Shown one piece after another: positions 11,099-23,874 of a stretch of DNA of 23,874 nt. The DNA comes from Nanopusillaceae archaeon (GTDB lineage Archaea > Nanobdellota > Nanobdellia > Nanobdellales > Nanobdellaceae), in the NCBI GenBank assembly GCA_049973735.1, contig JBMFJL010000004.1, forward strand, positions 1 to 23,874, read 5' to 3'. The position numbers were made by a program, and so were the translations under genes. How positions within the stretch are numbered: the stretch's first letter is position 1; each line of letters starts with the position of its first letter. Below the pieces are notes generated by a model, which saw only the letters and a list, made by a program, of their open reading frames with translations, was not told the origin of the DNA and made no database searches.

Positions 11099-11119
11099 CT
11101 TTATTTTTTATCTGTTTTT
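11099..11119 (+). terminator. Oligo-T archaeal terminator after the surface-protein gene
   Basis: ctttattttttatctgttttt lies immediately after the TAA at 11093-11095. T-runs of this kind are the usual archaeal termination signal. Confidence 0.45.
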
Positions 11120-11161
11120 AAAATTTCATCATTTTTCAGCCTGGGACGGTTTCTTCATGAT

Positions 11162-19878: not shown

Positions 19879-21816
19879 ATGAATTCTATTGAAGATCTAA
19901 TAAAGGTATTTAAGGAAAAAGGATTCTTTTACGAGTCTCAGGAGATATATGGAAGTAGATCTGGTTTTTATGATTATGGATCAATAGGTACATTGCTAAA
20001 GAGAAAATTCGAAAATTTGTGGAGATTATATTTCGGAAAACTCTTTGATAATATATATGAAATACAACCTTCAGATATTATGAATAAGAATGTTTTTGTT
20101 GCATCAAGACACTTAGAATTATTTAATGACCCTATAGTAGAATGTAAAAATGGTCATAGATTTAGAGCAGACAAATTGATTGAAGAGGAATTAAAGATCA
20201 AAGCAGAGACTTTAAAGATTGAGGATATGAATAGAATATTTGAAGAAGGAAAAGTATTATGTCCTATATGTAAATCAAAACTATCTAATGTTAGGTTATT
20301 TAATTTAATGTTTCCAATATTTGTAGGACCAGAATCTGACTTATTTTTATATTTAGAAGATATTAGGAAAAGATATAATCTATATAAGGAACTAATTAGT
20401 AAGAAATTTAGAAGAATAAATGAAAAAAACGCTTCCTATATCTATAAAAAATATTTAATAAATAAAAATCTATATGCAATTGAAAATGAAGGTAAATTAT
20501 ATATTTTCGATGAAAATAAAGAAATAATAATAAGATATGATGAATTATCCAGAGAATATTACTATTATTCTGATAAAAATATTGATATTGGGGAAGAAGA
20601 AATAATTTATTTAGAAGAGTTATTCAATAAAATAAAATATATAGAATTATTTAGAGAAAAAGATTTAGAAAAAATAATAGAAAAGTATAATGATTTGTTG
20701 AATAATCAAATGTTTTTAAGACCAGAAACCGCACAAGGACCTTATGTCAACTTTCCTGAAGAGATAATAATAAATAGGTATAGATTGCCTTTAGGATTAT
20801 ATGTTATTGGGAAAGCATATAGAAATGAAATATCTCCAAGAAATGCTTTATTAAGAATGAGGGAATTTACCCAGGCAGAATTACAGATATTCTTCGATTA
20901 TTATAATAATAGGTTTAATGATGAGTTTGAAAAGGTAAAGGATAAAAAAATAAATGTTTTATTAGTTAAGGATAGAGATAAAGGAAGAGATTTCTTTGAA
21001 AAAAGTTTAAATGAAATATACATAGAAACTAGGATAGATAAATTCTATTTATACTTTTTGTATAAAGTATTTTTATTTTATACAGAAATATTAAAGGTAG
21101 ATAAAAATAAAATAAGATTTTATCAATTATCTGATGAAGAAAAATCTTTTTATAACATGTATCACTTTGATTTAGAAATAAATATAAAAAATATAGGATG
21201 GACAGAGGTTGGGGGAATACACTTCAGAGTATTGAAATTCAGAAAAGATATAATAGAAAGGGTTCCGGATGAATTAAAAGAAGATGTAAAGAAATTATTT
21301 GATAAAGATGAGATATTTGTTGGATATGATTTATGGAATCATTTCATCTTATCAAAGGATAGAAGATTTATATTAACAAGACCGGATGGAACAAAGTTCA
21401 TTCCAGTTGAGTTGGAACTATCTTTTGGAGTAGATAGAAATATATTTATGCTACTAGTAAATAATTATGAAAATATATTAAAATTGCCAGAATATTTGGC
21501 ACCAATACAAATTGCAGTATTTCCATTACTAGAAAATAATAATGATCATGTGAGAATTGCAAAAGAAATATATGAAAAGTTGAGGAAAAGATTTGATGTA
21601 TATTATGATGATTCTGGAAGGATTGGAATAAGATACAGAAGGCAGGATGAGATTGGAACACCATATTGTATTACTGTTGATAATCAAACTTTGAATGATA
21701 ATACAGTTACAGTAAGATTTAGAGATACAAAAGAGCAAATTAGAATAAGTATAAATGATTTGGAAAGATTTTTTGAGGAAAAATTTAACTATTGGAAAGT
21801 AGTAGATATAATATGA
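19879..21816 (+). CDS. glyS: Glycyl-tRNA synthetase (archaeal/eukaryal alpha2 type) carrying a ~125-aa insertion
   Basis: FYESQEIYGSRSGFYDYGSIG, NLMFPIFVGP, FLRPETAQGPY, GKAYRNEISPRNALLRMREFTQAELQIF (motif 2), LSFGVDRNIFMLL (motif 3), anticodon-binding FPLLENN...YDDSGRIGIRYRRQDEIGTPYCITVD. Confidence 0.93.
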   Translation: MNSIEDLIKVFKEKGFFYESQEIYGSRSGFYDYGSIGTLLKRKFENLWRLYFGKLFDNIYEIQPSDIMNKNVFVASRHLELFNDPIVECKNGHRFRADKLIEEELKIKAETLKIEDMNRIFEEGKVLCPICKSKLSNVRLFNLMFPIFVGPESDLFLYLEDIRKRYNLYKELISKKFRRINEKNASYIYKKYLINKNLYAIENEGKLYIFDENKEIIIRYDELSREYYYYSDKNIDIGEEEIIYLEELFNKIKYIELFREKDLEKIIEKYNDLLNNQMFLRPETAQGPYVNFPEEIIINRYRLPLGLYVIGKAYRNEISPRNALLRMREFTQAELQIFFDYYNNRFNDEFEKVKDKKINVLLVKDRDKGRDFFEKSLNEIYIETRIDKFYLYFLYKVFLFYTEILKVDKNKIRFYQLSDEEKSFYNMYHFDLEINIKNIGWTEVGGIHFRVLKFRKDIIERVPDELKEDVKKLFDKDEIFVGYDLWNHFILSKDRRFILTRPDGTKFIPVELELSFGVDRNIFMLLVNNYENILKLPEYLAPIQIAVFPLLENNNDHVRIAKEIYEKLRKRFDVYYDDSGRIGIRYRRQDEIGTPYCITVDNQTLNDNTVTVRFRDTKEQIRISINDLERFFEEKFNYWKVVDII

Positions 21817-21846: not shown

Positions 21847-23451
21847 ATGAAAAAGATTGCATTTATATCTCAGGAATTTTCCATAGAAAAGTTACCAACG
21901 TATGCGGGTGGATTGGGAATACTGGCAGGAGACCTTTTATATTCATCAAATGATCTAAAATATCCTATATACGGGATAACTTTTGTAAATAAAAATGGTT
22001 ATGGTTATTATGAGATAAAGGGAAAGGAAATAATATATAATGAGGAAAGTTATGATCCTATAGAGTATTTTTTAGAAGTAGAAGATACCTTTTATATAGA
22101 TTTAAAAGGAAAAAAAATATACTTTAAAGTTTGGAGATATAATTTACCATATTCTAATTTATTTTTATTTGATACAGATATGCCAAAGAATGATCCACAA
22201 ATTAGAAAATTAACTGGTAGATTGTATTATGAAGAAAGTCAGGAAGAGAGATTGTTGAAGGATTTATTATTGGGTCTAGGTGCGTTGGAATTCTTCGATA
22301 AAATTGGTATAGAAATAAATAAATATCATCTAAATGAGTCGCATGGAGGATTTCTGGCAATAGAATTATACAAAAGATATAAAAATATAGAAGAAGTTAG
22401 GAAAAGAATAATATTTACGACACATTCAATAATTGCTGGTCACGATTCATTTGATTATAATTTAGTAGAAAAATATTATGACATACCAAATGAAATAAAG
22501 TATTTATCTCCAGAAAAATTAAATTTAACAAAAATATTATTGAATTTGGCTGGATTTAAAAATGCAGTATCTTATAAACATAAAGTAATAACTGAGAAAG
22601 TATTTGGTGTAGAATTAGAATATATAACTAATGGTGTAAATCACATAAGATGGACAGATAGAAAGATAAAGATGTTATATGATACATATTTACCTGGTTG
22701 GAGAGATGAACCTTCAAAGTTATCTTATGCGCAAATAATAGATAGATCCCAATTCATTAAAATAAAAAATATGTTAAGGAAGGAATTAATAGATTATATA
22801 AATGTAAATGCATATTTAAATAAAGAATTTGAAGAAGATAGAATAATATTAACTGTTAAAAGAAGATTAGCAGAATATAAAAGATTTCATATGTTATTGT
22901 GGAGATTAGAAAGATTGGAAGAATTAAATAGAAAATATAGAATACAGTTCATATTATCTGGATCTTTCCATCCAAAAGATGAATTTACAAAAAATACAAT
23001 AAAATGGATCGTAGATATAATGTCAACTTTGAATTTACCAGTTGGATTGTTATTAAGGAGAGGATATGAACAGGAAAAAATAATATTATCTGGAACTGAT
23101 TTGTTTTTACACATTCCAAGACCACCATTTGAGGCATCTGGTACTTCATGGATGAGGGCAGGAATTAATGGAACTCCTACATTATTTTCAAGAGATGGTT
23201 CTCCACTAGAAATAATAATTGATGATTATAATGGATGGTTTTTTGGAGAAAATAATTATGATATAAATAGAAATACTGATGAAGAAGATGTAAAAGACTT
23301 CTATAATAAATTAGATTATATATTGAATCTTTACAGAAACAATTATAACAAATATATAGATATATCTATAAATGCTATAAAGACAATTGGACCTTTGTTT
23401 AATTCTCATAGGTGTTTGCTAGAATATATACATAGGGCATATGAGAAATGA
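21847..23451 (+). CDS. glgP: Short alpha-glucan (glycogen/maltodextrin) phosphorylase homologue, GT35, with substituted PLP-site lysines
   Basis: IAFISQEFSIEKLPTYAGGLGILAGDLL, HLNESHGGFLAIE, IFTTHSIIAGHDSF, ITNGVNHIRWT, KRRLAEYKR, PRPPFEASGTSWMRAGINGT. This matches the TIGR02094-type phosphorylase pattern, but with EASGTS-W-M-R where the family has M-K. Confidence 0.8.
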   Translation: MKKIAFISQEFSIEKLPTYAGGLGILAGDLLYSSNDLKYPIYGITFVNKNGYGYYEIKGKEIIYNEESYDPIEYFLEVEDTFYIDLKGKKIYFKVWRYNLPYSNLFLFDTDMPKNDPQIRKLTGRLYYEESQEERLLKDLLLGLGALEFFDKIGIEINKYHLNESHGGFLAIELYKRYKNIEEVRKRIIFTTHSIIAGHDSFDYNLVEKYYDIPNEIKYLSPEKLNLTKILLNLAGFKNAVSYKHKVITEKVFGVELEYITNGVNHIRWTDRKIKMLYDTYLPGWRDEPSKLSYAQIIDRSQFIKIKNMLRKELIDYINVNAYLNKEFEEDRIILTVKRRLAEYKRFHMLLWRLERLEELNRKYRIQFILSGSFHPKDEFTKNTIKWIVDIMSTLNLPVGLLLRRGYEQEKIILSGTDLFLHIPRPPFEASGTSWMRAGINGTPTLFSRDGSPLEIIIDDYNGWFFGENNYDINRNTDEEDVKDFYNKLDYILNLYRNNYNKYIDISINAIKTIGPLFNSHRCLLEYIHRAYEK

Positions 23452-23500
23452 TGAATTTGCCGAGTACTGATAAATGATGACTTTTACCCGTTCTGAGTCT
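23445..23500 (+). ncRNA. C/D box sRNA (2'-O-methylation guide), fully canonical
   Basis: C box AUGAUGA 23448-23454. 12-nt guide AUUUGCCGAGUA 23455-23466. D' CUGA 23467-23470. 3-nt spacer UAA. C' AUGAUGA 23474-23480. 12-nt guide CUUUUACCCGUU 23481-23492. D CUGA 23493-23496. The box spacing is exactly the archaeal 12/3/12 architecture. Confidence 0.88.
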
Positions 23501-23571
23501 TTTTAAGATTGAATCTAATTGAATAGCACTTATAAAAGGATATTATTCCTAATATTTCGGAAATATTTTTA

Positions 23572-23874
23572 TTATTTTCCAAAGAAAGACAGAATATTTT
23601 TCTGAGTACCTTGTTTATATGCTTTTTTCAATTCTTCAATCGCTTTATTAACTCTTTCTTCTGAAAAATCATGTTCATCAATTAATATTTTCCTTATTTT
23701 TTCTTCATCAATTTCTCCAAACTTTATATCTTCTTTATTTACTTCAATTACTGGTGGATCTAAGAAAAATTCTTCCAATTCTTTCCATGAAATATCTTTA
23801 TAATATTTTTCCCATCCAACATATTTAAATAATCTTTCAGGATCGTTATTATTTTTTACCAATTCATATGCAGT
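23572..23874 (-). CDS. fen: Flap endonuclease 1 (FEN-1), C-terminal part. The 5' end lies outside the window.
   Basis: The frame is open to the window edge (TAYELVKNNNDPERLFKYVGW...). IDEHDFSEERVNKAIEELKKA matches the FEN-1 C-terminal region. It ends in a PCNA-interacting PIP box, QKNILSFFGK. Confidence 0.8.
   Translation of the reverse strand, partial: TAYELVKNNNDPERLFKYVGWEKYYKDISWKELEEFFLDPPVIEVNKEDIKFGEIDEEKIRKILIDEHDFSEERVNKAIEELKKAYKQGTQKNILSFFGK

Follow-up and report, generated by a model that had tools for sequence, protein, structure and literature searches.

A phosphorylase-like gene of a Nanopusillaceae archaeon ends in letters that can also be read as the beginning of a C/D box sRNA. 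This locus raises the question of whether the gene end encodes a guide RNA, and if so, which rRNA nucleotides the RNA would guide and how it would be made from a place that it shares with a coding sequence. We analyzed the whole stretch of DNA that carries the gene end (23,874 nucleotides, hereafter the window), which belongs to a metagenome-assembled genome of 199 contigs and 786 kb that is 86% complete. We conclude, with a probability of about 0.9, that positions 23444-23499 of the forward strand encode a dual-guide archaeal C/D box sRNA that is predicted to guide methylation of the 23S rRNA. The conclusion is based on the motif itself, on its non-random occurrence, on the RNP genes of the host, on orthologues and their synteny, and on guides that are complementary to, and covary with, their targets in relatives. 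The Nanopusillus group consists of uncultured or co-cultured ectosymbionts from hot springs, and no paper describing their C/D sRNAs was found in the literature that we searched.

Box layout at the end of the phosphorylase-like gene

The ORF at 21847..23451 (+) encodes 534 aa and matched the Pfam families PF00343 (1.3e-13) and PF00534 (1.2e-8), identifying it as a phosphorylase-like/GT-B glycosyltransferase gene, the probable carrier transcript of the sRNA. Its TGA stop codon (23449..23451, +) forms nucleotides 2-4 of the C box, in agreement with a preliminary description of this DNA that had placed the stop of the upstream coding sequence within that box. The C box AUGAUGA (23448..23454) matches the consensus RUGAUGA perfectly and is followed on the same strand by the 12-nt D' guide AUUUGCCGAGUA (DNA ATTTGCCGAGTA; 23455..23466), the D' box CUGA (23467..23470), the 3-nt D'-C' linker UAA (23471..23473), the C' box AUGAUGA (23474..23480), the 12-nt D guide CUUUUACCCGUU (DNA CTTTTACCCGTT; 23481..23492) and a perfect D box CUGA (23493..23496), all of which were read directly. 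The four perfect boxes, the two exact 12-nt guides and the 3-nt spacer had been described correctly to the base, and both guide complements quoted at that time were also right. The extent of 23445-23500 given there holds as well, with a boxed core at 23448-23496 and short flanks making up the remainder. We infer that the sRNA is expressed and that its RNA ends lie at approximately 23444..23499 (+; ~55-56 nt), as indicated by sub-threshold Rfam alignments together with the box layout.

Only 3-4 weak pairs (AGA/UCU) are possible in a terminal stem (RNAfold, -4.2 kcal/mol), which fits the unpaired ends of the sRNAs of N. equitans (PMC3491384). A run of five T residues at 23500..23504 (+) is likely an archaeal oligo-T terminator for the mRNA/sRNA transcript; T-stretch terminators have been described for nanoarchaeal small RNA genes (PMC3491384). 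The intergenic space is bounded by a convergent downstream ORF (23572..23874, -) that runs off the window and whose orthologue is 79-92% identical in three genomes of the same genus (G001, G005 and G010).

The genome also encodes the proteins of a C/D RNP. Nop5 (PF01798, 5.9e-58) and fibrillarin (PF01269, 2.2e-86) are adjacent to each other (C34:2121-3430), and L7Ae is encoded on contig C119 (PF01248, 1.3e-30). In the proposed mechanism, the C/D and C'/D' boxes would form a kink-turn and a kink-loop as binding sites for L7Ae, Nop5 and fibrillarin; the 12-nt guides would then each pair with the 23S rRNA, and fibrillarin would methylate the 2'-OH opposite the fifth guide base upstream of the D' or D box. 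The sRNA gene lacks space to itself, and its C box provides the TGA stop of the phosphorylase-like gene.

Orthologues, synteny and the proposed route of expression

By the upstream protein, the closest relatives are Nanopusillaceae, among them 'Nanoarchaeota archaeon YN1' (G001), Ca. Nanopusillus acidilobi 7A (G004) and Ca. Nanobsidianus stetteri (G006). A pattern search with the C box and the D' guide detected the sRNA in 13 of 61 related genomes, and both guides were present in seven relatives, three of the same genus (G001, G005 and G010) and four others (G014, G015, G017 and G018). In a synteny search, the last 200 aa of the upstream protein served as the anchor. The total number of sRNA orthologues was 15, every one with a D'-C' linker of 3 nt. 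The sRNA was located directly at the gene end in all 11 Nanopusillus genomes in which the locus was found (G001, G005, G010, seven others and the window); in each of them the TGA of the gene coincided with nucleotides 2-4 of the C box, and the C box R-TGATGA and the D guide were kept. The last sense codon of the upstream gene, on the other hand, varied (E, K, G, R or V), while its third base always kept the purine of RUGAUGA. The D box adjoins the stop of the convergent gene in the relatives, so the sRNA fills the entire intergenic gap there, as compared to ~75 nt of extra sequence between the D box and the convergent gene in the window.

The sRNA was also present in two sister genera, and the synteny of gene and sRNA was kept in two genera. 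In one sister genus (G014, G017 and G018) two sRNAs in tandem come after this gene. The TGA of the gene again falls within the first of them, whose C box is AUGAAGA and whose D box shares one base with the C box of the orthologue of the window sRNA; unlike in Nanopusillus, the same gene end is thus taken by another sRNA. In G015 the orthologue lies elsewhere in the genome. The boxes, the Rfam matches to C/D families, the RNP proteins and the orthologues in genus and family all bear out the earlier assignment of the element as a canonical archaeal C/D box sRNA.

The preliminary description had reasoned that the sRNA must be cut from the 3' end of the mRNA or be made from a promoter inside the coding sequence, which is logically sound and agrees with the literature. 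Of these routes, the most likely appears to be one in which sRNA and phosphorylase-like mRNA are transcribed together as far as the T5 run (23500-04) and the transcript is then trimmed, and we lean towards it with some reserve. Assembly of the RNP would protect the sRNA while the body of the mRNA is trimmed off. We favor this route because the sRNA has remained joined to the gene end in two genera and because it is the majority route in the literature. Transcription of the same sRNA from its own promoter within the final codons of the phosphorylase-like gene is possible but rather doubtful. Some sRNAs of N. equitans do have promoters of their own (PMC3491384); a promoter motif was nevertheless present in only ~20% of archaeal C/D sRNA genes, according to the review of Tripp 2017 in PMC7994747. 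In G001, G005 and G010 the strings TTTCAAAG/TTTCAAGG, which differ from the N. equitans box A TTTAAA by a single base, occur at ~-29..-22 from the C box, near the position expected from the box A elements that precede start sites by ~26 nt in N. equitans (PMC3491384). The codons that make up this element are not kept in the window, which has TTG CTA instead. The last codons of the window do contain an AT-rich, TATA-like AATATATA, but an extra AAA codon moves it to -25..-18, so that the start would fall inside the C box. The element is neither conserved nor at a fixed spacing across the genus, which is a further reason for favoring co-transcription, and TATA-like strings occur everywhere in a genome of 27% GC.

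Predicted targets in 23S rRNA

Only the first 310 nt of the host 23S rRNA are assembled (found by BLAST at the end of contig C37), and since the gene is missing beyond these, targets were taken from the 23S and 16S rRNAs of relatives. A search of the assembly with Rfam gave no match to an LSU rRNA, and a 41-mer specific to the host 23S had no match in metagenome_contigs. The preliminary description had proposed aligning both guide complements to the rRNAs and tRNAs of the genome. This check succeeded for the 23S rRNA of relatives, which both complements matched, but not for the host's own RNAs, since its 29 tRNAs, partial 16S and 23S fragment offered no convincing target for either guide. A loose genome-wide scan for guide complements was discarded, as it gave hundreds of meaningless matches in the coding DNA of this AT-rich genome.

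The D' guide paired with the 23S sequence GGGAACUCGGCAAAU at 10 of 10 positions (guide positions 2-11, all Watson-Crick) in G001, G010, G014, G015, G017 and G018, and at 9 of 10 positions with the same site in G005. Over the full guide, 11 of 12 positions matched the 23S of relatives, the sole mismatch being guide position 1 beside the D' box; the conserved LSU segment that had been named earlier for this guide, also with 11 of 12 matches, is therefore the segment that the relatives carry. A perfect 10-mer in the rRNAs of G001 was found by 0.27% of shuffled guides. The N+5 nucleotide is the C of AACU[C]GGCAAAU, which corresponds to E. coli 1672 in a MAFFT alignment. The D' guide is thus predicted to direct 2'-O-methylation of the C at the equivalent of E. 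coli 23S 1672, and the position given earlier by the +5 rule, the C in ACU-C-GGC, agrees with the 23S of relatives.

As a separate observation, the D' guide has decayed in seven Nanopusillus species, and the 23S C that would be methylated is now a U. An rRNA nucleotide may have been released from constraint upon loss of its guide, or the reverse may have occurred.

For the D guide, the preliminary description had predicted methylation on the second G of its complement but could not place the target. We located it in the 23S of relatives at GAUGGGUAAAAA (E. coli 2048-2059), ~345 nt downstream of the D' target. [quoted passage not shown]

The D guide and its 23S site have changed together. The guide UUUUACCC faces the 23S sequence GGGUAAAA in G001, G002, G005, G006 and G012, UCUUACCC faces GGGUAAGA in G010 and G015, and UUCUACCC faces GGGUAGAA in G014, G017 and G018, while G003, G004 and G007 combine UUUUACCC with GGGUAAGA through one G-U pair and represent G-U intermediates. 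The D guide of each orthologue thus pairs at 10 of 10 positions with the 23S of its own genome, by Watson-Crick pairs or with one G-U. Double compensatory changes were found at two positions, no core pair was broken in the 13 genomes, and every change went in the direction that preserves pairing. Because the species are related, these data represent few independent events, with about two compensated positions.

The window's own D guide forms nine Watson-Crick pairs and one G-U pair with the 23S of relatives. It has a G at 23490 where all 14 orthologues have an A, and this G stands opposite a U in the 23S of every relative, giving a G-U at guide position 3, two positions from the methylation site. 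For the host, we infer the methylation and the state of the 23S from these relatives; if its 23S has a C opposite G23490, this would be a third compensated change. A search of public metagenome contigs for such a 23S variant gave no match.

It is quite improbable that the real or additional target of the D guide is the 16S sequence AAUGGGUAAAAG near position 376 of the G001 16S and not the 23S. The guide does pair at 10 of 10 positions with this 16S site in G001 and G005, and the window guide would form 11 Watson-Crick pairs and one G-U with the G001 16S. The host's own 16S, however, reads AAUGGGUUAAAU, which introduces a mismatch at the center of the duplex. The same U is present in G010, where pairing between the guide and the 16S is poor, and G014 has no 16S match at all. 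As a conserved D target the 16S site was consequently rejected, having failed in these three genomes, and the changes in the guide follow the 23S site and not the 16S site.

Occurrence of the box pattern in the genome

The full four-box pattern (R-TGATGA, 10-13 nt, CTGA, 2-9 nt, R-TGATGA, 10-13 nt, CTGA) occurred nine times in the 786-kb genome of 27% GC. It was absent from each of 20 genomes simulated by a first-order Markov model, and the analytic expectation was ~3e-5 per genome. When the box variants UGAAGA and CAGA were allowed, the genome contained 17 loci with guides of 35-60% GC; the guides of the window sRNA have 42% GC. A second C/D locus of the genome (C8:872-921) has the same +1 stop offset. 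Boxes that arose by chance or as a by-product of coding sequence where a gene ends, and that lack any RNA function, might be imagined because C and D boxes containing UGA are few mutations away from stop-codon contexts (PMC7994747), but this reading is effectively refuted by conservation of the element in three genera while the last codon and 3' flank vary and by the covariation of guide and rRNA, and the excess of observed over expected loci and the guide GC content, high for this genome, also oppose it.

A search of the whole window with Rfam at gathering thresholds gave no match. At permissive thresholds, 20 of 24 matches were to C/D sRNA or snoRNA families on the + strand at ~23442-23502, and many of these C/D alignments (sR3, sR17, sR1, sR9 and others), including the top scorers, spanned ~23444-23498. 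Membership in a specific family such as sR3, sR11 or snoPyro_CD was rejected, as sR3 scored 25.1 bits against a gathering threshold of 41 and sR11 scored 23.2 against 39. The matches rest on the boxes, and the sRNA was accordingly placed in no Rfam family. Since each Rfam family is specific to its guides, guide RNAs normally lack a match at gathering level.

Relation to published sRNAs

The closest counterpart in the same phylum is sR21 of N. equitans, which has the same compact C-12-D'-3-C'-12-D layout and was detected by RNA-seq with 43,700 reads (PMC4644070 Additional file 1; Randau 2012, PMC3491384). Its D' guide GUUUGCCGAUUA is identical to the window D' guide at 10 of 12 positions (Dennis 2015, PMC4644070 supplement) and has been assigned to the 23S block that contains the window D' target as well (E. 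coli 1630-1720). The D guide of sR21, AACCAGGCGCUG, is unrelated to that of the window, which limits the similarity to one half of the RNA, and the boxes of sR21 are variants (AUGAAGA, GUGAAGA and CAGA), unlike the perfect boxes of the window. The D guide AUUUGCCGAGUG of P. calidifontis sR38, an sRNA that has likewise been detected experimentally, is identical to the window D' guide at 11 of 12 positions (PMC4644070 supplement); it occupies the D and not the D' position, alongside a second guide that differs from that of the window. The consensus D' spacer of Rfam sR11 from Pyrococcus, UUUGCC.AGUUAC, also resembles the window D' guide, with scores of 23-25 bits against gathering thresholds of 39-41. 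What the window sRNA has in common with Pca sR38 and Rfam sR11 is the predicted target and not the gene family. The guide identities with sR21 and sR38 indicate that the D' site is targeted across archaeal phyla. The site lies in the area of helix 61 (domain IV), which has been named a hotspot of conserved methylation (Dennis 2015, PMC4644070). A 100-nt alignment block around the D target likewise contains predicted sites from several species (PMC4644070), and Pca sR58 seems to target a nucleotide 4 nt downstream of the D target of the window.

The stop codon of a same-strand upstream ORF lies inside the window sRNA, as in the class of 3'-ORF-overlapping C/D sRNAs (Tripp 2017), where it is typically placed in the C box, its position here as well. 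A stop codon within the C box is a documented and common arrangement (PMC7994747, PMC6009581, PMC3491384). [quoted passage not shown] In Pyrobaculum the C box supplies the stop codon in 23 cases, and a D box within the C box of the next sRNA has been reported as well (Lui 2018, PMC6009581). N. equitans has 26 abundant C/D sRNAs by RNA-seq (Randau 2012, PMC3491384), most of which overlap mRNAs and lack promoters. The overlap described here resembles those of Tripp 2017 and Lui 2018 in that both genes are on the same strand, the UGA of RUGAUGA serves as the stop, the guides are free of coding constraint and both guides retain rRNA targets. There is no qualitative difference from those overlaps; here the overlap is conserved genus-wide (11 genomes). 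The window sRNA is an ordinary archaeal C/D guide RNA and an additional case of a described class and arrangement.

Discussion

The predicted sites lie at the start of domain IV (E. coli 1672) and the start of domain V (E. coli 2052) of the 23S rRNA. Going by the E. coli secondary structure, we take the 5' edges of these domains to be near each other at the central junction. The sRNA may therefore also help to join them during folding; such help has been proposed for other distant dual guides (PMC7994747, PMC4644070).

The genus-wide overlap of the stop codon with the C box may represent functional coupling and not just compaction, a reading that also takes in the paired decay of the D' guide and the C-to-U change; we consider it unlikely. 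Under such coupling, the 3' end of the phosphorylase-like mRNA would be the sole source of the sRNA, and assembly of L7Ae and Nop5 over the UGA would be mutually exclusive with terminating ribosomes, so that a given transcript would give rise to protein or to guide RNA but not to both. If this were true, the supply of the guide would be tied to the expression of a phosphorylase-like gene of carbohydrate metabolism.

The known working of C/D guide RNAs is unchanged by these findings. The only mildly noteworthy extras are the guide-target covariation, which makes a clean teaching example when tabulated by genome, and the decay of the D' guide paired with the C-to-U change in the 23S. The annotation of Nanopusillus gains from this analysis one guide RNA that is well supported, together with two 23S sites predicted to be methylated, the equivalents of E. 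coli 1672 and 2052. That the stop codon overlaps the C box throughout the genus supports the published view of ORF ends as seeds and hosts of C/D sRNA genes.

Phosphorylase-like genes and C/D box sRNAs

We found that the association of a C/D box sRNA with the 3' end of the phosphorylase-like gene was extended in three genomes of a sister genus (G014, G017 and G018), where this gene is followed directly by two tandem C/D sRNAs (loci L056, L057 and L058, respectively). The first of these has the C box AUGAAGA and carries the guides UGGACGAAAAAU and UGGACCAAAACA. The TGA stop codon of the phosphorylase-like gene lies within this first sRNA, and its D box overlaps by one base the C box of the orthologue of the sRNA studied here (window 23448-23496, + strand). 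A relative of the first tandem sRNA was detected in the window's own genome at another place, contig C7:4201-4250 (-).

Genome-wide, at least 17 C/D sRNA candidates were identified in the window's genome, on contigs C1, C2, C5, C7, C8, C19, C20, C33, C36, C40, C65 and C137 and in the window itself at 11111-11158 (-). The latter candidate, the second C/D sRNA of this window, has the C box AUGAAGA and the D box CAGA. In the candidate at C8:872-921, nucleotides 2-4 of the C box form the TGA of an ORF, as in the studied sRNA.

Upstream of the phosphorylase-like gene, the window encodes a class II aminoacyl-tRNA synthetase (19879-21816, +) with tRNA-synt_2b and HGTP_anticodon domains. On the 3' side, ~75 nt (23497-23571) separate the D box from the stop of the convergent gene; within them, positions 23551-23567 form an almost perfect palindrome, AATATTTC-G-GAAATATT. 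This stretch is absent in the genus relatives, in which the stop of the convergent gene directly adjoins the D box.

The D' guide and its predicted 23S target

Both the 16S and 23S genes of the window's genome are interrupted by contig ends (C48:3733-4514 and C37:5508-5817). The complete genome of the relative G001 carries these two genes on opposite strands with ~6 kb between them (C1:242589-244081, +, and 250043-252974, -), and they are therefore unlinked.

The D' spacer of the orthologous sRNA had degenerated to A/T filler of 10-11 nt in seven Nanopusillus genomes (loci L046, L047, L049 and L051-L054, in G004, G007, G012, G002, G006, G011 and G003), and no rRNA match was found for these decayed spacers. 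The D guide was still intact in the same seven genomes. At the predicted D' target, we compared the 23S genes of six of them (loci L011, L014-L017 and L020; all but G011, for which a full 23S was not available), and the predicted methylated C was changed to U (AACUUGGCAAAU) in all six. Since the outgroups retain both the C and the guide, the loss of the D' guide and the C-to-U change were derived together, and may possibly represent one single event.
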